From a bacterium (lineage in GTDB: Bacteria; JACRDZ01; JAQUKH01): 64,000 nucleotides of DNA. Below the pieces are notes generated by a model that did not search any database, was not told where the DNA came from, and saw only the letters and a program-made list of their open reading frames with translations. Every line of letters starts with the position of its first letter. Positions within the stretch are counted from its first letter, which is position 1. Shown here piece after piece: positions 1 to 19,545 of this stretch. The position numbers and the translations under genes are program-made. The DNA lies in contig JAQUKH010000001.1 in NCBI GenBank assembly GCA_028719205.1, positions 80,603-144,602 on the forward strand, written 5' to 3'.

Positions 1-729
1 CATTATAGTCTGCTATACCTGTGCTTAACGCCTCAAGAAAAGTTCCTGTAAACGCGGAATGGTTCTTATAACCGCCATCACTTACCGGCTCCTTGCCACC
101 GGCTGTCAGGGCCTGCCTTGCTTTGCGTTTGGTAATTTCCTGTAGGTAACGCGGATGGTCATCTTTCACCGCCGCCGCGCGCGTTGTAAAAAACATACCT
201 GAATAACAGGCATCCAGCACCATATAAATATGTTTAGCCTTTATGTCTTTTAAAATATCTTTAAGCTCCGTCATTGAGATCGCGGAGGATCTGTATTCTC
301 CCTGCCGGAAATCCACCGGTATGAGGTATCCATTGTCTAAACTGCTCTCCCCATGTCCGGCAAAATAAACCAGCAATCTATCCCTTTCGCCTATTTTATA
401 AGGCAATTCATCCCCAAGCATTTGTAAAATTCCGCTTTTTGTGGCTTTGTTATCATACAGAGTAAAAATATGGTCTTCCGCAAAGCCATATTTGTCCTGT
501 AACATTTGTTTTACCGCCTTAGCATCATTTACGGCATACTTAAGCTTCCCAACCTTCTGATAATCATCAATTCCCACCACGACAGCCCAGCTTTGTCCAA
601 ACGGTTCAAGCACTTCACCGTCTTTGGCAACAATTTTTATACTGCGCAAACCTTCAATTGCAAAATTTAAAGTAGTATTAAATAGAATTATAAGTATGGA
701 TAAAGCGATAATTTGTGTGCGTTTCATTA
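1..729 (-). CDS. peptidase C14 caspase-domain protein; N-terminal about 243 aa present, 3' end runs off the window. Fourth paralogue.
   Basis: Reverse translation from ATG at 729 gives MKRTQIIALSILIILFNTTLNFAIEGLRSIKIVAKDGEVLEPFGQSWAVVVGIDDYQ..., a signal peptide followed by a caspase domain. About 92% nt identity to 14610..16070 over nt 1-100. Confidence 0.7.
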
Positions 730-751
730 TTTATACCCCCCATTAATTCGG

Positions 752-937
752 CTAATCCGGATTCGCAATAGATACAAAACCACCCCAGTAAAAAGGATTG
801 GGATTTTTTTCTTTTATTTTAAGTTTTGCTTCTCTTAAGGCTTCAGCTTTACTTTTGCCATCTGCCATGCGTTTATAAAATTCTATCATCAGGTCTTTTG
901 TTTCCTCGTCAGGCACTTTCCACAGGCTCATTACCAA
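752..937 (-). pseudogene. 61-aa ORF resembling only the C-terminal end of a CHAT (caspase HetF-associated) domain; possible gene remnant
   Basis: ...DEETKDLMIEFYKRMADGKSKAEALREAKLKIKEKNPNPFYWGGFVSIANPD matches the typical CHAT C-terminus (D-x-T...FY...G-S-x-AEALR-AQ...P-YYW-A-F). No upstream CHAT body exists in the 108-nt spacer. Confidence 0.3.
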
Positions 938-1045
938 TGTTTTTGCTCCCGCGAGGATAAAGGGCCTTTAAGGCCGAACACTCCCTCTCCTTTTTTAACT
1001 TCTTATAATTATAATAAAAATATATAAACAAAAGGAAGGTTGCTA

Positions 1046-2500
1046 CTACTCAAATTTCCATACTTGATCCGGGTGTTTGACCGCTTGACAAATTCTACCA
1101 CCATCATCTTTATTGCCGTTATAAACATCCAGATATAGCCCACTGATTCTTGATTGGATATAATAATATCCCGGATATTTTTCAGATGGTTCTAATCGCC
1201 ATACTTGATCTGGGTGTTTGACGGCTTGACAAATTCTACCACCAACATCTTTATTGCCGTTATAAACATCCAGGTATAGCCCACTGATTCTTGATTGGAT
1301 ATAATAATATCCCGGATATTTTTCAGATGGTTCTAATCGCCATACTTGATCTGGGTGTTTGACGGCTTGACAAATTTTACCACCAACCTCTTTATTTGCC
1401 TGATATACATCCAGATACAAACCACTGTTTTGTGATTGGATGTAATAACCACGATTCCCGCTTTCATCATTCGCGTTTCCGTTAAATGGATAATAGGCTA
1501 CTAATGCACTGTTGATATTTTCCCCTTGCGTTTCTCCTTGTGTAGGTTTTATAATATCAATTATTTTGGGCGGGACATGAGGTTTAGCTTCTATAACATC
1601 AGGTTTATCCGCCCGGGGTTTGTTTCCCATAGCATAAACCGAAGGCTGCACAAATACAAACTCGCCTCCCTCGGATCCCGGCAAATTGCCGAATTCAGGG
1701 ATTTGATCTGCCAGTTCAGCTACCTTTGGCTGTATATAGGTGTTTATTTCCGAAGCTGTAATAATACCATCGCCGTTATAGTCAGCCATACCTGTGATTA
1801 ACGCATCCAGAAAAGTTCCGGTGAAAGCGGAATGATTTTTATAACCGCCATCGCTTACAGGCTCCTTGCCGCCGGCAGTCAGGGCTTGCCTTGCTTTGCG
1901 TTTGGTTATTTCCTGCAAATATCGCGGATGATCATCTTTAACCGCCGCCGCACGCGTTGTAAAAAACATACCTGAATAACAGGCGTCCAGCACCATATAG
2001 ATATGTTTAGCCTTAATATCCTTTAAAATATCTTTCAGCTCTGTCATTGAAATCGCTGAAGCTCTGTATTCTCCCTGACGATAGTCCACCGGTATGAGAT
2101 AACCATTATCTTTGCTGCTTTCTCCATGGCCCGCGAAATAAATTAACAATCTATCTCTATCTCCTATTTTATCAGGCAAATCATCTCCTATCTTCTTCAA
2201 AATATCATTTTTTGTAGCTTTATTATCATATAGGGTAAAAATGTGATCTTCCACAAATCCATATTTATCCTGAAGCATTTGTTTTACCGCCTCAGCATCG
2301 CTAACCGCGAATTTAAGCTTCCCAACATTTTGATAATTATCAATTCCTATCACAACAGCCCAACTTTGCCCAAACGGTTCAAGCACTTCTCCGTCTTTGG
2401 CGACAATTTTGATACTGCGTAAACCATCATTAGCAAAATCCATAGTTGTAGTCATTAGGAATGCCAGTATAACTAAAATGACGATCAGTTTGGTTCGCAT
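1046..2500 (-). CDS. secreted peptidase C14 (caspase/orthocaspase) with C-terminal ricin-B-type beta-trefoil lectin (three QxW repeats)
   Basis: Signal peptide; His/Cys dyad motifs YFAGHG and LDACYSG; C-terminal 3x47-aa repeats containing Q-V-W. Confidence 0.85.
   Translation of the reverse strand: MRTKLIVILVILAFLMTTTMDFANDGLRSIKIVAKDGEVLEPFGQSWAVVIGIDNYQNVGKLKFAVSDAEAVKQMLQDKYGFVEDHIFTLYDNKATKNDILKKIGDDLPDKIGDRDRLLIYFAGHGESSKDNGYLIPVDYRQGEYRASAISMTELKDILKDIKAKHIYMVLDACYSGMFFTTRAAAVKDDHPRYLQEITKRKARQALTAGGKEPVSDGGYKNHSAFTGTFLDALITGMADYNGDGIITASEINTYIQPKVAELADQIPEFGNLPGSEGGEFVFVQPSVYAMGNKPRADKPDVIEAKPHVPPKIIDIIKPTQGETQGENINSALVAYYPFNGNANDESGNRGYYIQSQNSGLYLDVYQANKEVGGKICQAVKHPDQVWRLEPSEKYPGYYYIQSRISGLYLDVYNGNKDVGGRICQAVKHPDQVWRLEPSEKYPGYYYIQSRISGLYLDVYNGNKDDGGRICQAVKHPDQVWKFE
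1058..1480. repeat. three tandem 141-nt repeats encoding the three beta-trefoil subdomains (1058-1198, 1199-1339, 1340-1480). Copies 1 and 2 are nearly identical; copy 3 is diverged.
   Basis: Direct comparison of the nucleotide blocks starting ccatacttgatc... Confidence 0.85.
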
Positions 2501-2606
2501 AATTTATATTTCTCCCCCATTTTTATCAATCCGAACTCCCCTAATCCCCTATTTAAAAAAAGAGGGGAAAATAACAGTAAAATTATATTTATCTTTTCCC
2601 TCTTAC

Positions 2607-2632
2607 TCCTCCTCTTTTTTTAAAGAGGAGGA
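2607..2632. other. perfect 11-bp inverted repeat tcctcctcttt-tttt-aaagaggagga (GA/CT-rich hairpin) in the intergenic spacer. A second hairpin tcccct-N12-agggga lies about 60 nt upstream.
   Basis: Seen directly; no flanking U-run, so not a canonical intrinsic terminator. Confidence 0.4.
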
Positions 2633-2660
2633 TGGGAGGAGTTCTCTTAATGTTATTCTT

Positions 2661-2709
2661 TCAGCTTTTGAATGAATTTAGCTGATAGCTGAGTGCTGAA
2701 TTCTGACAA
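2661..2709. repeat. family-1 TCAGC-heptad element, right-arm-only (half) copy
   Basis: tcagcttttgaatgaatttagctgatagctgagtgctgaattctgacaa matches the right arms at 7001-7031 and 8307-8337. Confidence 0.6.
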
Positions 2710-2710
2710 C

Positions 2711-4477
2711 TTATTTATTATCCTTTCTCTCTTCTTTTTTGTTACCCTTATCTCCCTTAGTTTCCGTGCTGTCCCACACCTCCTCCGTCCCCGCGGATGG
2801 AATTGGTTTTGACATCGATTGGCCCTCCTCTTCAGTCAGCCCCCTTGAGCCTGTAAATCTATTTATGTCTTTTCCATAGATCTTAAATTCATAAATTGTT
2901 TCTGACCATATAGTTTTATCTAATTTTTCCCGTACTACGCCGATATTTTTTATACCTCTTGTATTTATCTCGTAGAACGGTTTTTTAAAATCCATTCCGA
3001 ATATATTTTCAATTGGGTCAGGTTTTATTGAAGCAATCGCTTTTACCCTTTCTATTCCGGCAGGCCCTTCTATTTTCATCTTAAATCCGTAATTATCACC
3101 CGGGATTCTGTAAGTCTGGCCTGCCCTGATAAAATTGTCCTGTGAAAATTGATTAGGGAAAAGAACATATGTTTCACCGCTTGTCGCTATATCAACTAAA
3201 GTCAGATAACAGTCACGGCTTGCTTTAAAATAGAAGTTTACATATTCATCTATTTTGTAACTTTCTTTATCAGTAGCGATATTAATATCAAACTCTTTTT
3301 TCTCTTGTTTTATTCCAATTATATTTTCTATACCTTTATTCTCTAAAAATACAAAATATTGCGCTTTCTTTACAACTTTCTCATCACTTAGCAACCCAAA
3401 TTCAACAGGGAAACTGCCTTCTTTATCAACAGGAATCCCCTGGCCGTCAAATTTTACTTTACCTGACATGTCAGTAAACTCATCTCTAACCCTTTTATCT
3501 AAATTGGGAAGAAACATAAAAACAGGCGAGTTTTTTATTGGAATATTTTTATCACCGGCCATATAACTAAATTCAATTTCAAACGGCTCCTTAATTTTTC
3601 CCCCGACTAAGATCTTCTGGTTATCGCCGGAAATTTTTTTCATTATGATCCCATTAAGTATTTTATCTTTTAAATGTTCAATGTCCTGCATCGATGGAAG
3701 ATTATTAGAATTATTATTTCCGGAAATTTGGGCTGATAAATATACTTTGTCAAATACGGTTTTCCTTTCTTCCGATAAATCCCAAAGTATTTTTAATGCT
3801 AAAACAACCTCCCCGTTTTTTTCATGCTCCAATGCTGTATTATAACCTTTTGTAATGCCTTCGATTTTTTCCTGCAGCAATTTGATCTCCATCTGTTCTT
3901 TTTTATTTTCTTCTTTTTCTTTATTTTCTGCGGCTTTATCTCTTCTTTTTTCCGCATATTCTCTTATACTTCTAATTTCTTCCTGAGGCACCGAAATTAA
4001 AAGCGCGGACACCCAATAAATTTTAGAGTTTTTATTTTCATAATATTTATATTTGCAATCATACCATTCTGATGGTTTTGTCCCGCGAATGAACGCTTCA
4101 GCAGCAGCACTGCTCGCATTTTTTCCAATTGACGCTATAGTTTCTTCATTATCTTTTCTGACTACTTTATTAATATATTCTTCTATAACTTCTATATTGA
4201 CTCCGCAATACTTAATAAATTCAATATCCGCGCCCCGCTTTGCTTCATCACGGGCAAATTTTCGCTCTTCTTTTTTTGATGACATACTGACAAAATACGC
4301 GTATTTTTCATCATGTTCAGGAGGTTTTATAAACCAGGCGGGCTGGATCGGGGAGGAAGATTCAAGTAATACCTCATTAACTTCCACAGTCTTTTGAGAT
4401 TCATCTCTAACTTGCATTCCTGTGCAGCTGCAAAACATAGAAATTACAATTATAATTATAAAATATTTTTTACCCAC
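2711..4477 (-). CDS. lipoprotein with N-terminal LPP20/FlgP-like domain and C-terminal DUF4384-like domain; K/E-rich tail
   Basis: Lipobox-like FCSC; PAWFIKPP...YAYFVS pattern of the LPP20 family; the C-terminal block YVNFYFKASRDCYLTLVDIATSGETYVLFPNQ...YRIPGDNYGFKMKIEGPAGIERVKAIAS resembles the caspase-associated DUF4384. Confidence 0.55.
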   Translation of the reverse strand: MGKKYFIIIIVISMFCSCTGMQVRDESQKTVEVNEVLLESSSPIQPAWFIKPPEHDEKYAYFVSMSSKKEERKFARDEAKRGADIEFIKYCGVNIEVIEEYINKVVRKDNEETIASIGKNASSAAAEAFIRGTKPSEWYDCKYKYYENKNSKIYWVSALLISVPQEEIRSIREYAEKRRDKAAENKEKEENKKEQMEIKLLQEKIEGITKGYNTALEHEKNGEVVLALKILWDLSEERKTVFDKVYLSAQISGNNNSNNLPSMQDIEHLKDKILNGIIMKKISGDNQKILVGGKIKEPFEIEFSYMAGDKNIPIKNSPVFMFLPNLDKRVRDEFTDMSGKVKFDGQGIPVDKEGSFPVEFGLLSDEKVVKKAQYFVFLENKGIENIIGIKQEKKEFDINIATDKESYKIDEYVNFYFKASRDCYLTLVDIATSGETYVLFPNQFSQDNFIRAGQTYRIPGDNYGFKMKIEGPAGIERVKAIASIKPDPIENIFGMDFKKPFYEINTRGIKNIGVVREKLDKTIWSETIYEFKIYGKDINRFTGSRGLTEEEGQSMSKPIPSAGTEEVWDSTETKGDKGNKKEERKDNK

Positions 4478-4497
4478 TATCCCCCCTATTTAAAAAA

Positions 4498-4921
4498 TAG
4501 CATTCAGCAATCAGCTGTCAGCATTCAGCTTTTTAATGAAAGACGTAATCATGCGCTTAATTTCTATTACCTTTTCAGTAAGACACTGGAAATCAGAATG
4601 GCTCAGCAACTCAAGATCATGAGTAAGCAGAAGATGATATTCTAACTCACATGCAGAACCCATCGCAATCTGAAAGAAACGCGATAACTCAGCTTCTCCC
4701 TTTCTTCCGCAGCCTTCTGCAATGTTAGCTGGAATAGAAGCACACGAACGCCGAATTTGGCTTGTCAGACCAAACAACTCATTTTTTGGAAAACTTGAAG
4801 TAGCTTTGTATACAGCCAAAGTTAATTCATGAGACTTCTCCCAAACTTTCAGTTCTCTAAAATTCTTCAATTGTATCGCTCCTTATTTTGCTGACAGCTG
4901 ATCGCTGAGTGCTGACAGCTC
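4498..4921. mobile_element. family-1 palindromic element carrying a gene. Left arm 4498-4529 and right arm 4890-4920 bracket the four-helix-bundle protein gene.
   Basis: The arms gcattcagcaatcagctgtcagcattcagc and gctgacagctgatcgctgagtgctgacagct are inverted TCAGC-heptad arrays as in the empty copies. The gene's last 7 codons lie inside the left arm. Confidence 0.4.
4511..4870 (-). CDS. four-helix-bundle protein (23S rRNA intervening-sequence protein family, PF05635/TIGR02436)
   Basis: ...LAVYKATSSFPKNELFGLTSQIRRSCASIPANIAEGCGRKGEAELSRFFQIAMGSACELEYHLLL... TTG start preceded by AAGGAG. Confidence 0.85.
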   Translation of the reverse strand: MKNFRELKVWEKSHELTLAVYKATSSFPKNELFGLTSQIRRSCASIPANIAEGCGRKGEAELSRFFQIAMGSACELEYHLLLTHDLELLSHSDFQCLTEKVIEIKRMITSFIKKLNADS

Positions 4922-6127
4922 TTATATGGCTTTATACGCTTCCTTCCTCTTCAGTATCCTTTGTAAATAATCTATTGTTTCCTGTTTTGGTAATTTTTTT
5001 ATTAACGTTTCATAGACAACTTTTGAAGTCATACTATTTATAATGGCATCTGCTTTTTTGATATCTTTCACGCCTGCAAATGTTTGCGCGAGATTTCCTA
5101 TCCCCGTATTATAAGCGGCAATAACGCAGTAAAGCCTGCTTTCTACATCTTTTATATTTTTGCAGTAACCATAAAATAATAATCCAAGATAAGCAGTTCC
5201 AATATTTATGTTGTTTTCATCATTATATAAATAAGAAGGGCTCAATAAATATGACTTCCCATATAAAATTTTCGTAACATCTTTACCGGCTGTTCCAGGG
5301 ACCACCTGCATAAGCCCATAGGCGGGAATCGGAGACTTTGCCATCGGATTAAAAGCGCTTTCTGTATGTATTACTGCCAATGCCAGAGACAGATCTAATT
5401 TATTTTTATCCGTGTATTTGCTGACTGACGCTTTATATTGTTTTGCTCTTTTAAGTAAACTATCAGATGGCAGGTCTATTTTTATGCTAATTACAATCGT
5501 TTTCTCAACTTTTGACGGCGCTTCCTGAATTTTAGCTTTTGCTACTATCTTTTTTACTTCTTTAGAAACTTCTTCTTTTTTAGGCGTGGGAGTATTAAAA
5601 AATACAGGCGCCAGGATCGGATCGCTTTTCACCTCATCTTTTTTTATATTCTTTACTTCTTTAATTACCTTTTTTTCTATGTTCTGTGAAAGCTTATCTT
5701 TTTCAAAGGCCGTTTTTTTGTCTTCAACCATTAAATCTTCCAGTGCCTTTTTAATTTTATTCTCTTTTTCCTCTTTTTTTTCATTCTGGCCTACGATTAT
5801 ATCTATTTTTATATTATTATTCTCAAAATCCACAATTTTTTTTGTTTGATAATCAGGAGAGTACTCAACCCATTTTTTATTATCAGAAATTTCAGGTTTA
5901 TCCCAGTTTGCTAATATCTCTTTTTTGTAATTCTCATATTCTTCTTCTACTATATTTTTATATTGTTCAAATTCTTTTTCTATTTCCGCTTGATATTCCT
6001 CAAATTCCTGCTGTTCCTGAGCAACTCCATTTTCCTGCTGTTTAACAAAGTCTTCAAAAGATTCAGCGGATACAAATGAAAAGTTAAAAAATATCATTAC
6101 ACCGGCCAAAACAATTACTTTTTTCAT
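4922..6127 (-). CDS. MltC-like membrane-bound lytic murein transglycosylase (SLT domain) with E/K-rich coiled N-terminal region
   Basis: HTESAFNPMAKSPIPAYGLMQVVPGTAG catalytic motif. Start chosen at ATG 6127 (MKKVIVLAGVMIFFNFSFVSA signal peptide, GGAAGGAA RBS). The longer ORF to 6160 would start with TTG inside the repeat. Confidence 0.75.
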   Translation of the reverse strand: MKKVIVLAGVMIFFNFSFVSAESFEDFVKQQENGVAQEQQEFEEYQAEIEKEFEQYKNIVEEEYENYKKEILANWDKPEISDNKKWVEYSPDYQTKKIVDFENNNIKIDIIVGQNEKKEEKENKIKKALEDLMVEDKKTAFEKDKLSQNIEKKVIKEVKNIKKDEVKSDPILAPVFFNTPTPKKEEVSKEVKKIVAKAKIQEAPSKVEKTIVISIKIDLPSDSLLKRAKQYKASVSKYTDKNKLDLSLALAVIHTESAFNPMAKSPIPAYGLMQVVPGTAGKDVTKILYGKSYLLSPSYLYNDENNINIGTAYLGLLFYGYCKNIKDVESRLYCVIAAYNTGIGNLAQTFAGVKDIKKADAIINSMTSKVVYETLIKKLPKQETIDYLQRILKRKEAYKAI

Positions 6128-6148
6128 TTTTTGTTTTTCCTTCCAATT

Positions 6149-6227
6149 AGCTATCAGCAATCAGCGCTCAGATATCAGCTAATTCAAATAAAAGCTGAAT
6201 GCTGACAGCTGATAGCTGAACGCTTAG
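6149..6227. repeat. family-1 TCAGC-heptad palindromic element (complete, empty)
   Basis: agctatcagcaatcagcgctcagatatcagct - aattcaaataaa - agctgaatgctgacagctgatagctgaacgct. Confidence 0.7.
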
Positions 6228-6898
6228 TATTTCTTAAACTTCTTGATAATCCAAATAACAACATATATTGCCACACAAAACCCTACAAAAAACGCAAGTA
6301 TAAGTTCATTGGTTCCTAAACTAAAACCGCTTTTTTCAGATATGGAAGATTCCGATAACGGTTCCACTTTTGCTTCAGATTTAGCTTCTTCCTTGACTTC
6401 TTCTTTTACCGCTTCTTTCACTTCTTCTTTTTGTATTTCTTTTGGTTTTTCTACTGCTATTTTTTCAACCTGTTTAATTTCAACTGTTTCAGCTTTTATA
6501 TCCGCTAAAATCAAATTTTCTTTTTTATTTTCAACCGCAGCCCCTTTACGAAGCTCTTCTAATTTATCTATTTCCTTATCTAGCTCATCCTGCCCATTTT
6601 TTGCTTTATTCTCCTGCCATAATGCTTCTTCGTTTATTTTTTTTTCTTTTTCGGGAGCAGCTTTTCCTTCGGTTTTAGCCTCATTTGAAATACTAATTGA
6701 TTTTTTGTCTTCTGAAATTTCTTTTTTAAACTTATTAAAATCCTCTAAATTTTCTTTCTTGTGCTCCTGAAAATCCTCTTTCATCTTTTGACTGGTTTCT
6801 CCCTCAAGCTCATTTTCAACGTCATCATATGTTTCAGCAAATAAAAACGTACTATTTAATAACATTATTATTCCGATAAAAATAAGTAATTTTTTCAT
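6224..6898 (-). CDS. secreted E/K-rich low-complexity protein with C-terminal transmembrane anchor
   Basis: Signal peptide MKKLLIFIGIIMLLNSTFLFA (ATG 6898, AAGGAG RBS); C-terminal LILAFFVGFCVAIYVVIWII; contains the ALWQENKAKNGQDELDKE motif shared with 7562..8164. Confidence 0.5.
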   Translation of the reverse strand: MKKLLIFIGIIMLLNSTFLFAETYDDVENELEGETSQKMKEDFQEHKKENLEDFNKFKKEISEDKKSISISNEAKTEGKAAPEKEKKINEEALWQENKAKNGQDELDKEIDKLEELRKGAAVENKKENLILADIKAETVEIKQVEKIAVEKPKEIQKEEVKEAVKEEVKEEAKSEAKVEPLSESSISEKSGFSLGTNELILAFFVGFCVAIYVVIWIIKKFKKY

Positions 6899-6924
6899 TC
6901 TATTATTTCTCCTTTGAAGTTTAA

Positions 6925-7031
6925 GCATTCAGCTCTCAGCTATCAGCACTCAGCTTTTTAATAGCATTCATCCATCTGCATTCAGTTTTTGAATGGATTT
7001 AGCTGATAGCTAGTAGCTGACCGCTGAACGC
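6925..7031. repeat. family-1 TCAGC-heptad palindromic element (complete, empty)
   Basis: gcattcagctctcagctatcagcactcagc ... agctgatagctagtagctgaccgctgaacgc. Confidence 0.7.
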
Positions 7032-7037
7032 TTCTTT

Positions 7038-7496
7038 TCATTGCAACACCATCCATACATGAATTTCCCCTGATTTTTCATCTTTCCAGATCTCTTCAAT
7101 ATTCGCTTTTACACTTTTACTATCAGACGTCTGAACGCTATAAGTACCCATATATGTCTTTGCGTCATTCTGTGTACCGGTTGTCGCGGTTACAAGATAA
7201 CTATTAACCTTTACCCCTAACTGCCTTGCTATATCATCCAAGGCCCTTTCTATAGCCAATTTTCTCTGTTCATTTTCACTTTTTATATGTATTCCGGATG
7301 TCCCAACACCGCCAATATTGCCTTTCATTCCCGGATTCCAATACCATTCCGGTTTACCATTTACTATTTTTGTCCCTTTTGATGTAACGTTCGTAATTAT
7401 TGATCCGCTATTATCCGCTTTTTTTACGCAGGATGACGCGGTAAACGCCAATATAACTACAGGTATTAGTAATAACCGGCTAAAAATATTTTTCAA
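7038..7496 (-). CDS. LPP20/FlgP-like lipoprotein
   Basis: Lipobox TASSC; PEWYWNP...GGVG...A..A..LA pattern. TTG start. Confidence 0.55.
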   Translation of the reverse strand: MKNIFSRLLLIPVVILAFTASSCVKKADNSGSIITNVTSKGTKIVNGKPEWYWNPGMKGNIGGVGTSGIHIKSENEQRKLAIERALDDIARQLGVKVNSYLVTATTGTQNDAKTYMGTYSVQTSDSKSVKANIEEIWKDEKSGEIHVWMVLQ

Positions 7497-7561
7497 ATTA
7501 ATACCCCCATTTTATTGGAGGAAAAGCATAAGATCTGCTTTCCCTCCAACTCTAATATTTA

Positions 7562-8164
7562 CTATTTTTTAGATTCAACTAATTTATTTACTTCTTTGTC
7601 CAGTTCATCCTGCCCATTTTTCGCTTTAAACTCCTGCCATAAAGCCTGTTCGTTCTTAAAACTGGTTTCAACCTGGTCTTTTATGGATTTCTTAGCTAAT
7701 TCATTATCAATAACAATCAAAACATATAAATTATCTTTTGGGGATGCCCAACTATCCCTAAGTGTTGTACCATTTAAAGTTTGGCTTGCAACTTGTTTTG
7801 ATACATCCGCTGATACCCTGTCAACCATTTCGCCATTACCAACCCCTGTAACATTCATAAAAGATTTAACCATATTTTTTACTTTTAACTCCATCATTCT
7901 GGCAAGTTCATTTCTTCCGTTGGCCAAAGCCTCTGTTCTTGCAAAGGACATACCGGCTTTACCTACTTTAGCAATACCAACTGCCGCGATCCCGCCTTCT
8001 ACCTGAGAGGTGGTTACCCATTTTGGAGCATCTTTAAATTCACTTTGTACAGTTGTATCCTGTTGAGTGTCTGTTTGCTTTGTTACGGCCTTAGTTGTTC
8101 CACAACCGGCAGAAAACACCACTGCAATAGCCAAAATACTTAACGAAATCATTTTCTTTTTCAT
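7562..8164 (-). CDS. LPP20/FlgP-like lipoprotein
   Basis: Lipobox FSAGC; APKWV...GGIAAVGIAKVG...ARTEALANGRNELA; strong AAGGAGGAT RBS. Confidence 0.65.
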   Translation of the reverse strand: MKKKMISLSILAIAVVFSAGCGTTKAVTKQTDTQQDTTVQSEFKDAPKWVTTSQVEGGIAAVGIAKVGKAGMSFARTEALANGRNELARMMELKVKNMVKSFMNVTGVGNGEMVDRVSADVSKQVASQTLNGTTLRDSWASPKDNLYVLIVIDNELAKKSIKDQVETSFKNEQALWQEFKAKNGQDELDKEVNKLVESKK

Positions 8165-8230
8165 TGTGTATCCTCCTTTTTATTTACATTGTGAATTTTT
8201 TTTTATTTAACTACAATGCTAGCTTATTAA

Positions 8231-8337
8231 GCAATCAGCAGTCAGCTTTCAGCTTTTTAATAGCTTTCTGCGTTCAGTTATCATTAGTCAGCTTTTGAAT
8301 AAAATTAGCTGATAGCTGAATGCTGAAATCTGATTGC
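8231..8337. repeat. family-1 TCAGC-heptad palindromic element (complete, empty), located in the 5' leader of 7562..8164
   Basis: gcaatcagcagtcagctttcagc ... agctgatagctgaatgctgaaatctgattgc. Confidence 0.7.
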
Positions 8338-8414
8338 TAAAGATTTAATCACCTCCCTGGCTTTAAGATGCTATTTTTTAGTAATAAACTTTTTTATATC
8401 TAACTCTAATATAA

Positions 8415-8431
8415 TGCAAGAACCATGCCAA
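8415..8431 (-). promoter_or_regulatory. sigma-54 (-24/-12) promoter. Minus-strand sense TTGGCATGGTTCTTGCA.
   Basis: TGGCAT-N5-TTGCA with correct spacing; 16/18 identical to the promoter at 16190-16206. Confidence 0.6.
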
Positions 8432-8576
8432 AAGTCGTTAAACAGTAAAAATAAATTCATTTTTATTAAAAAAACCCGATTTTTTCAGTCTTTTCCCCGT
8501 TTTTTTTAATCCAAATCCAAAATTACTAATATTAGCATATCAAAAACAGCCTGTTCCTATATCAAATAACGTATGG

Positions 8577-8591
8577 ATGCATGGAATTCCA
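8577..8591. promoter_or_regulatory. putative EBP enhancer (UAS) palindrome ATGCATGGAATTCCA, about 155 bp upstream of the sigma-54 promoter
   Basis: Same 15-mer as in the 16342-16359 palindrome, with the same spacing to the promoter. Confidence 0.45.
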
Positions 8592-8626
8592 CACAAGATA
8601 TGTTAAATGTTTTAGAATCTATCACC

Positions 8627-8670
8627 GTCAGCATTCAACTTTTGCATAAAATTAGCTGATAGCTGAAAGC
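8627..8670. repeat. family-1 element, half copy
   Basis: gtcagcattcaacttttgcataaaattagctgatagctgaaagc. Confidence 0.55.
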
Positions 8671-8673
8671 TCC

Positions 8674-10176
8674 TTATACAATATGCCCCCCTTTGTCAGG
8701 TTTATTAATATACTTTCGTCCTTTTGCCGTAATTTTGTACTTTTGGAGACGGCTGTTGGGCTTTTCCAGAATGGTTCTTTCAATAAGCCCTTCTGACAAA
8801 AGATCTTGAACCAACCGTTTAAGTGCCCCTGTAACTTGCTTCCTTCCAACTTGCACAGATATCTCAGACATAGAAAGCGGTTTATCCTTTAATGCTATTA
8901 TAACTGACTCGGCCCCTGACTCGGCCCCTGACTCGGCCCCTACAACCGGTTTTAATTTCACTAAAATTTTACGCCATACTGTTAAAATAAAGAACCCATT
9001 TTCTAAATGGAATTCCGGTGGTTTCATGCCTGCTTTTCGGCAATTATCAAACATATCAACAGTTCCGGTTCCAGCCTTTTCGATATATTTTGTCAGAAAA
9101 AGCGGTTCGGCAATCAGCGGATTTCCAGGGTGAGACGAATGAGGCATCGATAAACTCTCAATTGTCAGTGACGGCGGCAAAGTTCCAGGATTCCATACCT
9201 CAAGGCGATCTGCAAAAAGCATAATTTCAACGCTGGCATTGCTTATATAATCACGATGAGCTACTGCATTTACAATTCCCTCCGCGACCACTTCTTGCGG
9301 AATATCATATTCAACAGGAGCTTGCGGCCCTTGCGCCCGTGTTCCAACAAAACGGTTAAGTTTTGACATCACGAAATCAACCGACTGATCGACCATATCA
9401 AAAACCGTTCCCTTGTAAATTTGATATGATGGAATCGGCTTGAGTTTCTGTGTACCGTGAAAATGCATACATTTCACTTCGGAAGTAATCAGAAACCGCT
9501 GTGGTTTGACTCCAAATAATAAAATTGCCGCATGATTCGGTTTCCCTTTATCAAGCAGATCCAGATGGGTCAAAACATCAACAACAGGTGTTGTTTCTGC
9601 TAAAGCGTAATCACGGGCGTTGTGCGCGCGTGAAAGAAACCAGCGAATCTTATCGTCCGAAATATCGGCGACCTCCGCATTAAGACACATCGTCGCGTCA
9701 AATGGCCCGGTGTGGATCCGCCCGGAACCAAGAAGATAATGTACCAGGCTTGCGTAGACAGCTGAATGCAATTCTGGCAATGTATTAAAACGCCGTCGAA
9801 TCAACTGTGCTCCTGCTAAATTGATCAAAGAAATCATCTTTGGATGCCGGGATGCATCGCTATCGCCTTTGACAAAGATATAGCGAGGTTTACTACCCTG
9901 CGATGCCAAAAGAAATTCTTTATGCGTCGCGGACATTCCGTCGGAATCTTCAATGCCATACTTATTACCAAACAGGCCAATATAAATATCGCTCCGTTTA
10001 ACTTCTTCCAAGTACACCTCATCAGCACGGCGATCAGTAGCAGGAATATCCTCAAACAGAAACACATTAAAAAACCTGTTTAATAACGCGTCTCCCTGTA
10101 TATAATCTTTCAGAGCACGGCGTTCTTCGCTAAATTCTTTTTGAACACTGCTGATAAATATTTTATATTTTGTCAT
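8674..10176 (-). CDS. DUF4062-like N-terminal domain + AlbA_2 (Schlafen-like) + HATPase_c_4 + C-terminal winged HTH (RecG-like transcriptional regulator architecture, COG2865)
   Basis: KIFISSVQKEFSEERRALKDYI...SDIYIGLFGNKYG (DUF4062 pattern); ...NAVAHRDY...GTGTVDM... (HATPase_c_4); C-terminal wHTH. Confidence 0.55.
   Translation of the reverse strand: MTKYKIFISSVQKEFSEERRALKDYIQGDALLNRFFNVFLFEDIPATDRRADEVYLEEVKRSDIYIGLFGNKYGIEDSDGMSATHKEFLLASQGSKPRYIFVKGDSDASRHPKMISLINLAGAQLIRRRFNTLPELHSAVYASLVHYLLGSGRIHTGPFDATMCLNAEVADISDDKIRWFLSRAHNARDYALAETTPVVDVLTHLDLLDKGKPNHAAILLFGVKPQRFLITSEVKCMHFHGTQKLKPIPSYQIYKGTVFDMVDQSVDFVMSKLNRFVGTRAQGPQAPVEYDIPQEVVAEGIVNAVAHRDYISNASVEIMLFADRLEVWNPGTLPPSLTIESLSMPHSSHPGNPLIAEPLFLTKYIEKAGTGTVDMFDNCRKAGMKPPEFHLENGFFILTVWRKILVKLKPVVGAESGAESGAESVIIALKDKPLSMSEISVQVGRKQVTGALKRLVQDLLSEGLIERTILEKPNSRLQKYKITAKGRKYINKPDKGGHIV
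8906..8941. repeat. 3x12-nt perfect tandem repeat (gactcggcccct) encoding an (AESG)3 linker
   Basis: Seen directly. Confidence 0.9.
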
Positions 10177-10195
10177 TTTGTTTTGCTAATTTCTT

Positions 10196-12466
10196 TTATT
10201 TATATTCACTGCCACGAACAGGCCAAACAGAATAAAAATAGTTATCATTAAACAAACGAAGCTCTTGACCGTTAGAAAAATCAACAATTCGGCCATCAAT
10301 ATTTATCCAATAGCCCTGACTTTCAGGCACTAAATTAACAAAAGGATGTTGCTCTTGTTTATTATAAACAGTTTTCATTCTTATCAACTCTTTATATGTT
10401 GGCAATCTCCATCCAAAATATTTTTCATAATTTAAATTATTACATGCTAATTCAGCATTTTCCCAAATCACTTTGTTTTTTAAATAATTTGCGTCCTTTA
10501 ACCACAATAGTTTTGTAACATTATCATAAATAACACCATTCCCTAAATCTATGAATTTTGAAGGAAATAAAGCATATTTATTAATTAGTTTGGACCCAGT
10601 TAAATCCATAAATCTTGAAGAAAATTCATATTTTTTATTTAACGCATCATCAATAACATATGCTTCATTAATACTAAAATCTTTTGTCGTTGGAAAATTC
10701 ACTTTGATTTCAGCCCTTAGCAAATTATTTTCAAAATGCTGTTTCAACACTTTTGCCTCTTCTCTTGGAATTAGTATATTTTGTTTACATGTTACTTGAA
10801 TTCCTTTGATTGGTTGTTTTATTCTTATGGTAACGGGGTAAAAATTAAACTCGGAATTGTACTGTCGAAGTTCTAATATTAAATCATTGTATGTTAAAAC
10901 AAATTCATTTTCCGAAAGCTGTTTTAGCCTTTCAATAAATGGCGTGATTTGTTTATAATATTCAGATTCAATTTTACTCGATAATGCCTCAAATTCAGGC
11001 GTTTGCTCTTTATCTAAATTTTCTTTTTCCTTTAATATTTCAATTGACAATCTGTTCTTAAATTCAATTTCTGACTCAAACTCATCTTTATTAGAGTTTA
11101 ATATTTTCCCAAATTTCTCATTAATTCTTATACATATCTGGTTTATTCCATTAGTCAATTCTTTTCTATAATTTTTCTGAATGTCTTTTAATTGTGCGTC
11201 TATTTCCTCCATCTCGTTTATTGTAGCTTCAGGAGAAATTGATCTTAATGTTGCACCTTCCAGCGATTTCCTTTTACCTTCAACTTCCTGTTTAAGCATT
11301 GCTAATCTGGTTTCTTCTTCCTTCTTTTTTTGGATCAATTCATTTTCTTTTTTTAATCGTTCCTTTTCTTCGTCTTCCCTTTTTTTACGGTTTTCTTCCA
11401 ATGCATCTTGTTTTAATTGTTCCGCCCTTAATTTTGCTTCAATTTTTATTTTTTCGATCTCTGCCTGATATTTTGCACTTTCATCATTTGCCTTTAAAGC
11501 AGATTCTTCCAATAATTTTAACCGATCAAGTTCTTTTTGCAGGTTTACAACTTCCGCTTGATTATCTTCCAGTTTGCGTTCAATTGAAGGGATAAAAACA
11601 TAATCTCCTAATCCATATAACTCTCCATATTTTGGTGTTTGTATATGGTTTCTCGCGTTTGCGTCTGAGAATACTTTTTCTTTAAGCGCAGTGCTTATTT
11701 CAGTGGCTGTTATAAAATCATCTGTATTTTCCAGAAGTTCAATAAACCTGCCGGTAAAAACCGAATGGCCTTTAGGCCCGCCGTCTAATACCTGCTGGTC
11801 TTTATCCCCCGCGGTTAACACTTGTCTGACCCGCTCTTTAGAAATTTCTTTCAAATAGTTAAAATCCCTTGCTGTTTCTCTATTTGCCCCTCTTTTTGTT
11901 ACAAGAATTCCGCCATAGCACGCATCAACAATATAGAAAATATGTTTTGCCGGTATTCGTTTTGAAATATCATCTCTAATCATTGTCATAGAAAAATTTT
12001 TATATAATTCTTCTTTTTTGAATGTTCCGTCAAATGGTATAAGATAACCCAAATCCCCTTCCGCTGTTTTTTCCGTATATCCATGCCCTGCCCAGAAAAC
12101 AAAAATCGCGTCTTCTTCTGTAACCTGGCTAAGATTACCTAAAAGAATTTTAGTAATATTTTCTTTTGTAGCATCTTTATTGTATAAGGTAATGATCTTA
12201 TCAAATTTAAAATTCTTCCTGATAGCGTCTTCAACCCCTTTAGCGTCCTTTACCGCATAAGCCAATTGCATGTCATATGGCAAATTTTCATATTGGTCAA
12301 TTCCAATAATAACCGCGTAAGATTTGTTATATAACTTAAGTTCTTTTTTCTCTCCCGATGTTTTATCAACGGCAATGATTTTTATACCGCGGGTATCATT
12401 AATTGCGTATATTCCGCTTGATATAAAACAAGCAATAATTATTAAAAATAATAATTTTAATTTCAT
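10196..12466 (-). CDS. secreted peptidase C14 caspase-domain protein + long coiled coil + C-terminal DUF1566 (Lcl C-terminal-like) domain
   Basis: Signal peptide; FWAGHGY and VDACYGG dyad motifs; E/K/R-rich coiled coil; C-terminal WRLPTYKEL...WPVRG, characteristic of DUF1566. Confidence 0.8.
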   Translation of the reverse strand: MKLKLLFLIIIACFISSGIYAINDTRGIKIIAVDKTSGEKKELKLYNKSYAVIIGIDQYENLPYDMQLAYAVKDAKGVEDAIRKNFKFDKIITLYNKDATKENITKILLGNLSQVTEEDAIFVFWAGHGYTEKTAEGDLGYLIPFDGTFKKEELYKNFSMTMIRDDISKRIPAKHIFYIVDACYGGILVTKRGANRETARDFNYLKEISKERVRQVLTAGDKDQQVLDGGPKGHSVFTGRFIELLENTDDFITATEISTALKEKVFSDANARNHIQTPKYGELYGLGDYVFIPSIERKLEDNQAEVVNLQKELDRLKLLEESALKANDESAKYQAEIEKIKIEAKLRAEQLKQDALEENRKKREDEEKERLKKENELIQKKKEEETRLAMLKQEVEGKRKSLEGATLRSISPEATINEMEEIDAQLKDIQKNYRKELTNGINQICIRINEKFGKILNSNKDEFESEIEFKNRLSIEILKEKENLDKEQTPEFEALSSKIESEYYKQITPFIERLKQLSENEFVLTYNDLILELRQYNSEFNFYPVTIRIKQPIKGIQVTCKQNILIPREEAKVLKQHFENNLLRAEIKVNFPTTKDFSINEAYVIDDALNKKYEFSSRFMDLTGSKLINKYALFPSKFIDLGNGVIYDNVTKLLWLKDANYLKNKVIWENAELACNNLNYEKYFGWRLPTYKELIRMKTVYNKQEQHPFVNLVPESQGYWINIDGRIVDFSNGQELRLFNDNYFYSVWPVRGSEYK

Positions 12467-12470
12467 AATA

Positions 12471-13544
12471 CTATCTTTGACCTACATTATGTCTTTTGAC
12501 ATCATAAAAAGCCACACTTGATGCTTTTATATTATCTTTATTTTTATCTTTAATGTTTGAATCAATATAATATGGCAATGAGAATGAAAAATAATTACCA
12601 ATATCTTCTATTTTAATATTATTATCTTCGGGATTAAAACTGAGAGTAATATCAATGCCGCTTTTTACATTTAGCTTAAGAGCACCACTTAACACGTCAT
12701 CCCATTTTAAAAAATTTAAATTATTAGTATTAAAATTACTATATTGACTAGATTTGACAAATCCACTAACATATTTAAAAATATTCCCTTTTTCATCAGA
12801 TAAAGTTGGGTTAATTTCATAAACTCCTATTATTAAAATCTCTTTATCCAATTGATTAACAACATTTAATAACACTTCAGCTCTTCCCTTTGATAAAACT
12901 TTTACTTGTTTTACAGTAAAAAGTAAATCTCCAACTTTCTTTGAGTTTGAATTTCCGACTGAAGGGACATAGGAAGGAGTATTTTCAGAACTTTGCTGTT
13001 CAAAGGGCTGATTTGATTCAACTATTCCTCTCTCCAGAAGTTCATTTATCGCCTGGGTCTTTGCGATATTTCCTGAAGAAGCGCCAATCACCTTGGCGGT
13101 ACTTATATCTATAATTTTAACTGAAAGCCTTACATTGTCGCCAAACGGGGTAATACTTCCTGTGATAATTGCTTCTACTCCGGCTATCTGCCCCAGCTTT
13201 TTGGCTGATTCAGGGTTTACTAAATCAGATAGTGAAAGTTTATGTTCCCGTAAAAGAGCTTTAAGGTGAATTCTATCCACCACTTCAAATCCTTTCCCTG
13301 CAGAGGTAAGAGTTACTGAAAACTCCTCTGCTAAAAATCTCCCTAATTCGGTTACATTACCCTGAAGGTCTGTGAAATCAACCACAGCTATTGACTTCTT
13401 CCCCGCTTGTGATATATTTTCTGCCATTGTGGCAGACAGGGCGCTTATTTCTTTTTCATAAGCCTTCGATAAATTTGAACCAGACAGTAAAAATACTGTT
13501 GATAAAAGGCAAACAAGAAAAAACTTCTTAATGATACTTTCCAT
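12471..13544 (-). CDS. FlgO/CsgG/LpoB-like fold periplasmic protein (paralogue B)
   Basis: Signal peptide; IAVVDFTDLQGNVTELGRFLAEEF...VVDR..L..LL.E..L pattern. The N-terminal 190 aa are near-identical to 13601..14590. Confidence 0.5.
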   Translation of the reverse strand: MESIIKKFFLVCLLSTVFLLSGSNLSKAYEKEISALSATMAENISQAGKKSIAVVDFTDLQGNVTELGRFLAEEFSVTLTSAGKGFEVVDRIHLKALLREHKLSLSDLVNPESAKKLGQIAGVEAIITGSITPFGDNVRLSVKIIDISTAKVIGASSGNIAKTQAINELLERGIVESNQPFEQQSSENTPSYVPSVGNSNSKKVGDLLFTVKQVKVLSKGRAEVLLNVVNQLDKEILIIGVYEINPTLSDEKGNIFKYVSGFVKSSQYSNFNTNNLNFLKWDDVLSGALKLNVKSGIDITLSFNPEDNNIKIEDIGNYFSFSLPYYIDSNIKDKNKDNIKASSVAFYDVKRHNVGQR

Positions 13545-13600
13545 TATATTAATCCTCCCTTTTTGTAAAAATCTTTATTTCTTATTTCTATCGTTTATCA

Positions 13601-14590
13601 TCATTTTGTTATTGGAATATTGCGAAGCTGGGCAATAATCCATTTGTTGTCTCTATAGCATGGGATTTCTAGCAACGATAGTTTGCTAACATTTTTTGAA
13701 ACTGTTTCAATTTTAAATGTTAATCTCGTTGGCACATCAGAAACAAGCAAATTTCTAGCACATCTGTCCTTATGATTTCCAAGCTCAATACCTTCCGGAC
13801 AATATTCATTCCCAAAATCATCAAAAATTCTTGATGATTTTGTCCAATCAGTACTACCAGTACAACCACAAATCATTATTTCCCTATCGTTTTTATCTTT
13901 ATTAGTAATTATTAAATTACAGGTTATTGTCGTATTAGAAATTTTACACTCTTTTACCTCAAAAAGAAAATCATCCACTTCCACACTTTGCTGTGCTTTT
14001 GTTGGTTTCTGTGATGATATTGTTTGTATTGGTTTACTTACATCTTGTGCTTGAACTTCTGCTTCTATCCCCCTCGCCAAAAGTTCATTAATAGCTTGTG
14101 TTTTAGGAATATTTCCAGCAGTGGCGCCAATAACCTTGGCAGTACTTACATCTAATATTTTAATGGTAAGCCTTACACTTTCACCAAAAGGGGTAAGGCT
14201 TCCTGTAATAATCGCTTCTACTCCGGCTATCTGCCCCAGCTTTTTGGCTGATTCAGGGTTCACTAAATCGGAAAAGGCAAGTTTATGTTCCTTTAAAAGG
14301 GCTTTAAGATGGGTTCTATCTATTACTTCAAATCCTTTTCCAGCCCCGGCAAGAGCAACCGAAAACTCCTCTGCTAAAAATCTTCCAAGCTCGGTTACAT
14401 TACCCTGAAGGTCTGTAAAATCAACTACGGCTATTGTCTTCCTGCCAGCCTGTGTAATATTTTCTGCCATCGTAGCAGACAAAGCGCTTATTTCTTTTTC
14501 ATAAGCCATAGAGAAACCAGAGCCTGACAGCGAAAATATTATTGATAAAAAACAAATAAAATAAAACTTCTTCCATGCATCTTTTTTCAT
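13601..14590 (-). CDS. FlgO/CsgG/LpoB-like fold periplasmic protein (paralogue A) with Cys-rich C-terminal domain
   Basis: Same N-terminal domain. Start at ATG 14590 with AGGAGG RBS; the longer ORF to 14620 would overlap the upstream stop. The C-terminal 120 aa contain 8 Cys. Confidence 0.5.
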   Translation of the reverse strand: MKKDAWKKFYFICFLSIIFSLSGSGFSMAYEKEISALSATMAENITQAGRKTIAVVDFTDLQGNVTELGRFLAEEFSVALAGAGKGFEVIDRTHLKALLKEHKLAFSDLVNPESAKKLGQIAGVEAIITGSLTPFGESVRLTIKILDVSTAKVIGATAGNIPKTQAINELLARGIEAEVQAQDVSKPIQTISSQKPTKAQQSVEVDDFLFEVKECKISNTTITCNLIITNKDKNDREIMICGCTGSTDWTKSSRIFDDFGNEYCPEGIELGNHKDRCARNLLVSDVPTRLTFKIETVSKNVSKLSLLEIPCYRDNKWIIAQLRNIPITK

Positions 14591-14609
14591 TAAATCATTC
14601 CTCCTGTAT

Positions 14610-16070
14610 TTATTTCCCAAATATTAAAGTTAATTTGTTAATAAATTCATCAATTAACGGTTCAGCTAATTTTTTAGTAAACTGATCATCTCTTTTTCCA
14701 TTAATCGCCTGTTTCTGATCCAATCCGAATATCTTTTCTGTTCTATTAATTGAAACAACTTTTTCTTTATTAGAAACTTTGTTTAGGGTTAGAATAGCCT
14801 TAGCTATATAAGATTTTAAACCCATGTTATCCTGAGAAAATTCAATCGAGGTTTCTATAGCTAAATTTAAATCGGGAGTAACATCCTCTAATTTTTCTGT
14901 TTTTTTCTTGTAATCATCTGCTTCTTCATTATTACCTCTATTACGGGCAACTTTTTCTTTAGCAGTAAAAATGTTTTTTTGGCCTGTGATTTCATCCAAT
15001 TTTTGTGAATTATAAATATGCCAACCAGCTTCTGTAAGTTTTTGATCCAATAATGTCTCTAAAATATCACTACCTTCTCCTTTTATTTCCATAATTACAT
15101 TTTTAGGAACAAGTTTTATCTGTTTTTCTTTTGATTCTACAACAGGAGCTGATACTTCCTCTTTTTGAGTTACAGGTTGTGGAGCAGTAACCTGTTTCGG
15201 TGAAGAATCAGACGGCACAATAAATACAAACTCGCCTCCCTCAGATCCCGGCAAATTGCCAAATTCCGGTGTCTGTTCTGCAAGCTCCGCTACTTTTGGC
15301 TGAATATAAGAGTTTATTTCTGAGGCAGTGATAATACCATCGCCATTATAGTCGGCCATACCTGTACTTAACGCCTCTAGGAAAGTTCCTGTAAAGGCGG
15401 AATGGTTCTTATAACCGCCATCACTTACCGGCTCCTTGCCTCCGGCGGTTAGGGCCTGCCGGGCTTTCCGTTTTGTGATTTCCTGTAAGTATCGCGGATG
15501 TTCCTTATCCACCGCCGCTGCGCGCGTGGTAAAGAACATACCTGAATAACAGGCATCAAGCACCATATAGATTTGTTTAGCCTTGATATCTTTTAAAATA
15601 TCTTTTAGCTCGGTCATGGAAATCGCGGTGACTCTGTATTCCCCCTGCCGAAAATCAACCGGTATGAGGTAACCATTATCTAAACTACTTTCCCCATGCC
15701 CGGCAAAATAGACTAATAATCTATCTCTATCACCTATTTTATAGGGCAATTCGTCCCCAAGTATTTGCAAAATTCCGCTTTTTGTGGCTTTATTATCATA
15801 CAGGGTAAAAATATGATCCTCCGCGAATCCATATTTATCCTGAAGCATTTGTTTTACCGCCTTAGCATCATTTACAGCATACTTGAGCTTTCCAACCTTT
15901 TGATAATCATCAATTCCTACCACCACCGCCCAGCTTTGTCCAAAGGGCTCCAGAACTTCCCCGTCTTTAGCGACAATCTTAATACTACGTAATCCCTCTG
16001 CGGCATAACCCAAAGTTGTATTAAATATAACCGATATTATGAATAAAACTATAATACGTCTGATATGCAT
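14610..16070 (-). CDS. secreted peptidase C14 caspase-domain protein with uncharacterised C-terminal domain
   Basis: About 85% aa identity to 1046..2500 over the caspase domain (YFAGHG, LDACYSG); the C-terminal 200 aa have no recognisable motif. Confidence 0.85.
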   Translation of the reverse strand: MHIRRIIVLFIISVIFNTTLGYAAEGLRSIKIVAKDGEVLEPFGQSWAVVVGIDDYQKVGKLKYAVNDAKAVKQMLQDKYGFAEDHIFTLYDNKATKSGILQILGDELPYKIGDRDRLLVYFAGHGESSLDNGYLIPVDFRQGEYRVTAISMTELKDILKDIKAKQIYMVLDACYSGMFFTTRAAAVDKEHPRYLQEITKRKARQALTAGGKEPVSDGGYKNHSAFTGTFLEALSTGMADYNGDGIITASEINSYIQPKVAELAEQTPEFGNLPGSEGGEFVFIVPSDSSPKQVTAPQPVTQKEEVSAPVVESKEKQIKLVPKNVIMEIKGEGSDILETLLDQKLTEAGWHIYNSQKLDEITGQKNIFTAKEKVARNRGNNEEADDYKKKTEKLEDVTPDLNLAIETSIEFSQDNMGLKSYIAKAILTLNKVSNKEKVVSINRTEKIFGLDQKQAINGKRDDQFTKKLAEPLIDEFINKLTLIFGK

Positions 16071-16189
16071 AAGTTGTGCCCCCCTATATCAACTTCCACT
16101 ATAAACCAAATAATCAACAATCTTTAGTCTGTATCTTTCCTTTATATTGGTGTATTTTATTTTCAAACTTATACTTCATACTTAATATA

Positions 16190-16206
16190 TGCAATTACCG
16201 TGCCAA
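16190..16206 (-). promoter_or_regulatory. sigma-54 (-24/-12) promoter. Minus-strand sense TTGGCACGGTAATTGCA; about 120 nt upstream of the caspase start at 16070.
   Basis: Consensus TGGCAC-N5-TTGCA. Confidence 0.65.
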
Positions 16207-16341
16207 AGTGTTCATTTGTACAAAAATAAATAAAAATAATCTGTTTCTCTCAATTTTGTTCCGGATTCCCGATAAAAACATTCGTAAATTACGGCATACG
16301 TTAAAAAAAATGACCTATTCCTCAAAAGCCTCAATTATGAA

Positions 16342-16359
16342 TGCATGGAATTCCATGCA
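16342..16359. promoter_or_regulatory. perfect 18-bp palindrome TGCATGGAATTCCATGCA, putative EBP enhancer (UAS) about 146 bp upstream of the sigma-54 promoter, abutting the EBP stop codon
   Basis: Seen directly; its core recurs at 8577-8591 with equivalent spacing to the second sigma-54 promoter. Confidence 0.5.
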
Positions 16360-19146: not shown

Positions 19147-19406
19147 ATTTAATTTTTAAGAATAATATTATGGTGCAAAATTTTATTAATTATACTTTAT
19201 ATTTTTTTGCCTGTAAAGCGCTCTTTTGAACAACTTTTGTTAAATACAATTTTTGTGGATTTTGCTAACATAAAAAAACACTGTAAATTTAAAGATACAT
19301 CTTCAAATTCGCAGTGTTCTAATATTTCCAGCGTCCGTTTTTTGAACTTTTTTCCAATTTCAGGCCTAATGCAAACAAAATCCTATCACTACAAGCCCTT
19401 TTTATT

Positions 19407-19433
19407 CTATGCTCTTTGCGCCATGCTCTATGC
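19407..19433. repeat. family-2 heptad repeat (CYWTGCN)n immediately 3' of tRNA-Val
   Basis: ctatgctctttgcgccatgctctatgc; related copies at 25111-25144 and 48259-48301. Confidence 0.6.
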
Positions 19434-19439
19434 TTTTAT

Positions 19440-19516: not shown

Positions 19517-19545
19517 ATTTTCAAATTTATAAGTTGAAAACTATT

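Follow-up and report, generated by a model that had tools for sequence, protein, structure and literature searches.

The three subdomains (alpha, beta and gamma) of a single beta-trefoil, encoded at the 3' end of a bacterial gene for a caspase-like protease, are near-identical to each other, and this likeness most probably arose, with a chance of about three in four, through repeated homologous recombination among the tandem units in this lineage. The gene is part of a 64,000-nucleotide stretch of DNA, analysed as a whole and indicated below as the window; its features are collected in Table 1. We infer recombination as the mechanism behind the likeness of the units: one tandem unit would have been repeatedly overwritten by another, likely either by gene conversion or by unequal crossing-over followed by a return to three units. 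Selection would keep exactly three in-frame units, since the fold needs three, together with the same residues in each of them. The same process would have operated independently in related trefoil genes.

Table 1. Coordinates of the features in and next to the lectin-tailed protease gene, with the basis of each assignment or its position in the protein
Feature	Position in the window	Strand	Basis or remark
5' part of the tandem paralog P0002 (caspase and two LamG), cut by the window edge	1-727	-	
61-aa ORF, C-terminal end of a CHAT protease domain only	752-937	-	Pfam CHAT 2.3e-15, profile positions 227-287 of 289
Whole gene: 484-aa caspase-like protease with C-terminal ricin-type lectin	1046-2500	-	ORF list, Pfam
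Stop codon of the gene	1046-1048	-	
RicinB_lectin_2 trefoil at the C-terminus, three subdomains	1049-1453	-	Pfam 2.1e-24
Trefoil subdomain gamma	1049-1171	-	aa 444-484
102-nt exact direct repeat, downstream copy	1134-1235		beta C-half and gamma codons 1-12
Trefoil subdomain beta	1172-1312	-	aa 397-443
102-nt exact direct repeat, upstream copy	1275-1376		alpha C-half and beta codons 1-12
Trefoil subdomain alpha	1313-1453	-	aa 350-396
Orphan LamG leader strand LVAYYPFNGNANDESGN	1454-1504	-	aa 333-349; adjoins alpha
Linker, Pro/Lys-rich, without family match	1505-1717	-	aa 262-332; Pfam, translation
Peptidase_C14 (caspase/orthocaspase)	1718-2365	-	aa 46-261; Pfam 2.5e-17
Predicted signal peptide MRTKLIVILVILAFLMTTTMDFA	2432-2500	-	about aa 1-23; read from the translation

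The protease and its lectin tail

The 484-aa product is identical to NCBI MDD5771896.1, described as 'MAG: RICIN domain-containing protein [bacterium]', and its last 135 residues are encoded by the repeat array. The predicted signal peptide is hydrophobic and has no lipobox cysteine, which suggests that the protease is secreted. The Peptidase_C14 domain (PF00656; 63.8 bits, cutoff 21.4) retains both catalytic residues, His125 (in FAGHG) and Cys174 (in LDACYSG); such a His-Cys dyad is given as the defining trait of the C14 p20-like domain in PMC6426788. The trefoil may serve as the C-terminal targeting module of this secreted caspase-like cysteine protease.

The assignment of the tail to the ricin-type (CBM13-like) beta-trefoils, predicted from sequence and from a structural model, is sound. 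RicinB_lectin_2 (PF14200) is matched at 86.4 bits (cutoff 25.6; E-value in Table 1); Ricin_B_lectin (PF00652) gives 26.8 bits, slightly under its cutoff of 29. Members of the ricin-B family consist of alpha, beta and gamma subdomains, homologous to each other and arranged in tandem, with about 40-50 aa each (PMC11212257), and the three units of 47, 47 and 41 aa fit this layout. The best match among PDB sequences is ThreeFoil (3PG0, E 7.8e-11), followed by the Marasmius oreades agglutinin (MOA), SeviL and the CBM13 module of Clostridium thermocellum 1,3Gal43A. Structure prediction, proposed as a check in the initial annotation, gave a 12-strand beta-trefoil: AlphaFold2, run on an alignment of eight sequences, returned one confident model out of five (mean pLDDT 89.3, pTM 0.84), the other four having pLDDT values of 37-49. 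When this fold was compared to the PDB by Foldseek, 3PG0 ranked first again (TM 0.80, probability 1.00), ahead of the CBM13 module of 3VSF, MOA, Mitsuba, and many further lectins of trefoil fold and receptor-binding domains of toxins; 165 PDB structures, mostly trefoil lectins, were found at E<=1e-3. The ricin-B trefoil originally proposed for this region is thus borne out by the RicinB_lectin_2 match together with the similarity to ThreeFoil.

The state of the sugar site is less straightforward. A ricin-type sugar pocket comprises an Asp, a Gln or Asn, and a stacking aromatic. In the alignment with ThreeFoil, the Asp of the LDV motif and the Gln of CQA are conserved in all three units. The trefoil may bind glycan, and with the same residues kept in each of three units the domain would probably be trivalent. 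The Ala of CQA, invariant in all three units and in the close family, aligns with the stacking Tyr of the ThreeFoil motif IQY; with the stacking aromatic replaced by Ala, glycan binding and its specificity are not assured. Each unit contains one cysteine (C377, C424, C471). Many bacterial CBM13 modules do without the disulfides of the classical domain, and a single cysteine per unit is therefore compatible with the wider family. In classical ricin B each repeat has two cysteines, forming a disulfide (PMC11212257).

Anatomy of the repeat array

Tandem Repeats Finder reports the region 1058-1448 as a single array, with period 141, 2.8 copies, 92% matches, no indels and a score of 661; a repeat search of the window recovered the same 141-nt family. 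The repeat is real and far exceeds what chance would produce. The initial annotation had described near-identical 141-nt tandem repeats encoding 47-aa units, each with a QxW motif, and both statements hold: copies 1 and 2, in the register used there (starts at 1058, 1199 and 1340), agree at 137 of 141 nt, and QVW is found at aa 385, 432 and 479. The gene being on the minus strand, copy 1 of that register corresponds to gamma, the last subdomain, and copy 3 to alpha, the first. Two details need correction. The interval had been given as 1058-1480, and the repeat does extend to 1453, but the remaining bases, 1454-1480, belong to the LamG leader remnant, outside the repeat. Copy 3 had been estimated to be about 75% identical to the others, which is close to the value found in the same register (101/141 and 103/141, or 72-73%); in the protein register, however, alpha and beta are 86.5% identical (122/141 nt), the lower value resulting from the inclusion of those 27 non-repeat bases.

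In the protein register the comparison of alpha and beta reveals a mosaic, where the 19 differences are unevenly placed: the C-terminal halves (codons 27-47) are identical at 63 nt out of 63, and the N-terminal halves (codons 1-26) are diverged, with 59 matches out of 78. Beta and gamma agree, over codons 1-38, at 110 of 114 nt, the four changes being three synonymous ones and one V to D replacement; the last three codons of gamma, before the stop, are unlike those of beta. The longest exact repeat measures 102 nt and runs across a subdomain boundary (Table 1). As read from the sequence, the array contains at least two layers of unequal age, the youngest tract being out of step with the subdomain boundaries; the downstream copy of the 102-nt repeat is likely the most recent conversion or duplication tract. 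In terms of recombination, this latest tract would begin midway through one subdomain and continue into its neighbour, the likeness of beta and gamma would be slightly older, and the N-terminal half of alpha would have escaped homogenization. The half-unit mosaic favours tracts of conversion or of unequal recombination over the duplication of whole units.

A different history, in which one or two discrete, recent, subdomain-sized duplications were accompanied by the loss of an older unit, with no continuing conversion, is unlikely; it would be 'modular' re-triplication as strictly meant by Broom et al. It would suit both the distance between beta and gamma, only 4 nt, and the offset of the 102-nt repeat, which, at a period of 141 nt, fits a slipped duplication of the C-half of one unit together with the N-half of the following one. 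At least two events of different age would be needed, however, to explain the number of differences in the two pairs (0/63 between the C-halves of alpha and beta, 4/114 between beta and gamma), and the number of units would have to come back to three every time. A related gene, discussed in the next section, adds a further difficulty.

No second copy of the trefoil, which might have acted as a conversion donor, is present in the window. The array was also considered as a possible target of a diversity-generating retroelement, on account of the 23S_rRNA_IVP/bAvd-like gene at 4511-4870 (-): this encodes a 23S rRNA intervening-sequence protein, a four-helix bundle with a weak, sub-cutoff bAvd-like match. 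The idea was rejected: the mismatches between beta and gamma (C/T, T/A, C/G, A/G) are not confined to adenines, each of the two copies is coding, and the ORFs tested, within about 20 kb to the right, include no reverse transcriptase.

Likeness of subdomains within and between genes

To collect relatives of the trefoil, HMMER was run exhaustively against 1.84 billion cluster representatives, and yielded 2165 proteins at E<=1e-3, 22 of them at E<=1e-30. The closest ones are small, secreted, stand-alone trefoils with near-identical subdomains, such as P0121 (176 aa, 75-79% identity) and P0124 (178 aa, 66-71% identity); five members of the P0121 cluster have three units each. Scans of genome and metagenome contigs with a 151-aa C-terminal query gave nothing for the trefoil, the listed matches being swamped by those to the LamG leader, VAYYPFNGNANDESGN, which the query contained.

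All trefoil matches were cut into units by an HMM of the 47-aa unit. For the 43 trefoils with three units, the median identity of the best subdomain pair is 56%; the best pair reaches at least 70% in 11 of them, and at least 90% in four, including the window protein. In the 12 closest proteins, 25 out of 36 subdomains have their nearest neighbour within their own protein; P0125 and P0038, instead, show a plain position-wise orthology of units. High internal symmetry is thus a trait of the clade, which has arisen repeatedly. In the initial annotation such near-identity had been regarded as unusual: this was overstated, given the 11 clade trefoils out of 43 at or above 70% and a process already described (Broom et al. 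2012).

Other arrangements of the same unit were also observed. P0058, a protein of 350 aa found on six contigs, has a signal peptide and two trefoil units, 60% alike, followed by an unrelated domain; two giant proteins, P0122 (2401 aa) and P0123 (4650 aa), contain 14 and 23 stretches matching the trefoil query.

Nucleotide sequences were compared for the genes of three relatives: P0121 (contig L165), P0124 (L166) and P0275 (L168). The C-terminal halves of alpha and beta are identical (63/63 nt) inside the window gene, and equally so inside the L165 gene; when the same half is compared between the two genes, only 56 of the 63 nt agree, and the seven differences are all common to both units of each gene. 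Synonymous distances point in the same direction: dS, calculated according to Nei-Gojobori over 36 codons per unit and therefore rough, is 0.15 for beta-gamma and 0.46 for alpha-beta inside the window gene, 0.19-0.32 inside L165, and 1.1-1.7 when the window gene is compared to L165 or L168 at matched positions. Together, the lower distances within genes and the pattern of identity in the C-halves argue for a lineage-specific homogenization, and indicate that the units became alike after the genes had separated, either by concerted evolution or by independent re-duplication, the two processes originally suggested for this array. An excess of likeness within genes is expected equally from conversion and from independent re-duplication: it is the mosaic tract alone that favours conversion. 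For the history of one or two discrete duplications, the L165 gene is the further difficulty mentioned above: it also features identical C-halves of alpha and beta, with seven lineage-specific bases of its own, so that the process recurs and amounts, in practice, to concerted evolution.

The same data bear on the possibility that the units are old and are alike through purifying or convergent selection alone. That selection can hold units alike is illustrated by the L166 gene (L166:145-681): its alpha and beta are almost identical as protein, yet only 82.6% identical as DNA, with dS of about 1.8 and dN of 0.024. These two units are old duplicates kept identical by purifying selection, unlike those of the window gene, and purifying selection on each unit also adds to symmetry in the family. 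For the window gene itself, selection as the only cause is hardly credible and was rejected: identity there extends to synonymous sites, as seen in the 63 identical positions out of 63, in the 102-nt repeat, and in the beta-gamma dS of 0.15 as against 1.1-1.7 between genes, which selection acting on the protein is unable to bring about.

Unit number was also considered in relatives. For the window gene, neither homology searches nor an exact-sequence look-up in a contig index retrieved a second strain or an independent assembly in which the variation of lectin valency between strains, put forward as a possibility in the initial annotation, might be seen; the same look-up gave no match for the tandem paralog P0002. 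Two proteins of the P0121 cluster contain a signal peptide and a single 47-aa unit: P0269, from contig L167 (ERZ795044, assembled by SPAdes, coverage 1.5), and P0273, from contig L169 (ERZ27257461, assembled by MEGAHIT). When L167:311-565 and L169:337-561 are aligned to L168:6001-6537, the flanking sequences agree at 98-99%, and both contigs lack exactly 282 nt. L167 and L169 are short contigs from different samples, and the three-unit L168 is a 28-kb contig. The single-unit form may derive either from assembly collapse or from a real deletion by unequal crossover, since the two look the same on the sequence. It is distinctly unlikely that the number of motifs varies in natural populations of the clade, P0269 and P0273 being genuine alleles with a deletion and their product forming a trefoil as a homotrimer; if true, these would represent a living case of the path from a peptide to a fold known as 'conserved architecture', and the window gene would be a three-unit stage of the same cycle.

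The single-unit contigs also make collapse plausible in this family, and many metagenome assemblers work with k-mers shorter than the exact repeat of 102 nt. It is nevertheless very improbable that a short-read assembler expanded or collapsed the array of the window gene, whose true unit number would then be different. Reads of 150 nt can thread a 102-nt repeat, and each unit carries private differences (4 nt between beta and gamma, 19 nt between alpha and beta). The ORF is intact, with the three units needed by a trefoil, and its predicted fold is confident in one out of five AlphaFold2 models; moreover, the gene is located on a 197-kb contig, and three units of 141 or 138 nt are present in the independent assemblies of L165, L166 and L168. 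Recombination among tandem units, repeated in the lineage, is the preferred explanation.

Origin of the fusion and known systems

The trefoil is preceded by an orphan LamG leader strand, and the same motif begins each of the two LamG domains in P0002, its tandem paralog. At the DNA level, 45 nt of the leader show 91% identity to the start of the second LamG domain in contig L005, and the similarity stops precisely where alpha begins; L005 carries a P0002-like gene with a different upstream neighbour, and is uninformative on the ricin gene beyond the LamG junction. The leader peptide is 100% conserved across many phyla, among the matches listed, and precedes Laminin_G_3 in all four genomes tested (4/4). 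The leader is taken to be a scar left when one domain replaced another: the orphan strand, and the end of the match at alpha, indicate that a trefoil cassette was joined onto a caspase-LamG paralog immediately past its leader strand.

At the nucleotide level, the 5' part of P0002 and the caspase-encoding part of the ricin gene are 85% identical. The CHAT fragment at 752-937, which lies between these tandem genes, is a gene remnant and a further sign of rearrangement.

The first 20,000 nt of the window (1-20000) form a caspase island, with four Peptidase_C14 genes, at 1-727, 1046-2500, 10196-12466 (where the peptidase is combined with Lcl_C) and 14610-16070. In at least three of them (1-727, 1046-2500 and 14610-16070) the caspase parts are 83-89% identical in nucleotide sequence and the C-terminal modules are unlike. 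Other genes of the island encode a DUF4384 protein (2711-4477), an SLT transglycosylase (4922-6160), an LPP20 protein (7562-8164), CsgG/FlgO-like proteins (12471-13544 and 13601-14620) and a CHASE2-sigma54 activator (16360-19146). Between caspase genes, at 8674-10176 (-), lies the gene for a protein of 500 aa that combines DUF4062, HATPase_c_4 and Fic-like_C domains.

Two lessons for annotation follow: arrays of this type are prone to assembly collapse, and the caspase paralogs of this organism exchange C-terminal binding modules (ricin, LamG, Lcl_C), leaving a visible junction scar.

The finding is a further case of a described re-symmetrization of trefoils, and does not represent a new kind. 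Its value lies in providing a clean, natural example, at the nucleotide level, of a re-symmetrized fold, with a mosaic of putative conversion tracts inside one trefoil, along with sister genes which would have been homogenized independently and with the L166 units, apparently kept identical as protein by selection alone. Such genes could serve studies of the evolution and design of repeat folds, for instance as natural templates for symmetric lectins; the current picture is left unchanged.

Beta-propellers with near-identical blades were reportedly shown by Afanasieva et al. (2019, cited in PMC9062101) to derive from independent, recent amplification of single blades: the logic of recent re-amplification and the near-identical DNA repeats are the same as here, the fold and the repeat number are not. 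Among trefoils, the closest precedent is given by Broom et al. 2012 (Structure 20:161), according to whom, as cited in PMC9062101 and PMC8880906, beta-trefoil symmetry is regenerated by repeating single subdomain modules, in a recurring, ongoing process. Like the trefoils of that 'modular evolution', the window trefoil is ricin-type, or CBM13-like, and its subdomains resemble each other much more than is common. ThreeFoil, a designed protein, has perfect symmetry, whereas the window trefoil is natural and mosaic, with one half-unit not homogenized; in addition, unlike both ThreeFoil and the modular-evolution case, evidence is available here at the nucleotide level, and the canonical stacking aromatic is an Ala.

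Actinohivin, a CBM13-type lectin from an actinomycete, also consists of three tandem repeats, with three near-equivalent sugar pockets and pseudo-threefold symmetry (PMC3498932). Both are small bacterial trefoils of three tandem repeats, but actinohivin stands alone and has an Asp/Tyr pocket for mannobiose, while the window trefoil is fused to a protease. Fusions of ricin-B/CBM13 modules to peptidases are a listed architecture (PMC11212257). MOA (PDB 2IHO/5MU9), a chimerolectin of known structure, similarly combines, in one chain, a ricin-B trefoil and a cysteine protease, which the lectin is able to target; it is, however, a fungal protein with an N-terminal lectin and a papain-like protease, while the window protein is bacterial, with its lectin at the C-terminus and, as protease, a caspase homolog of clan CD.
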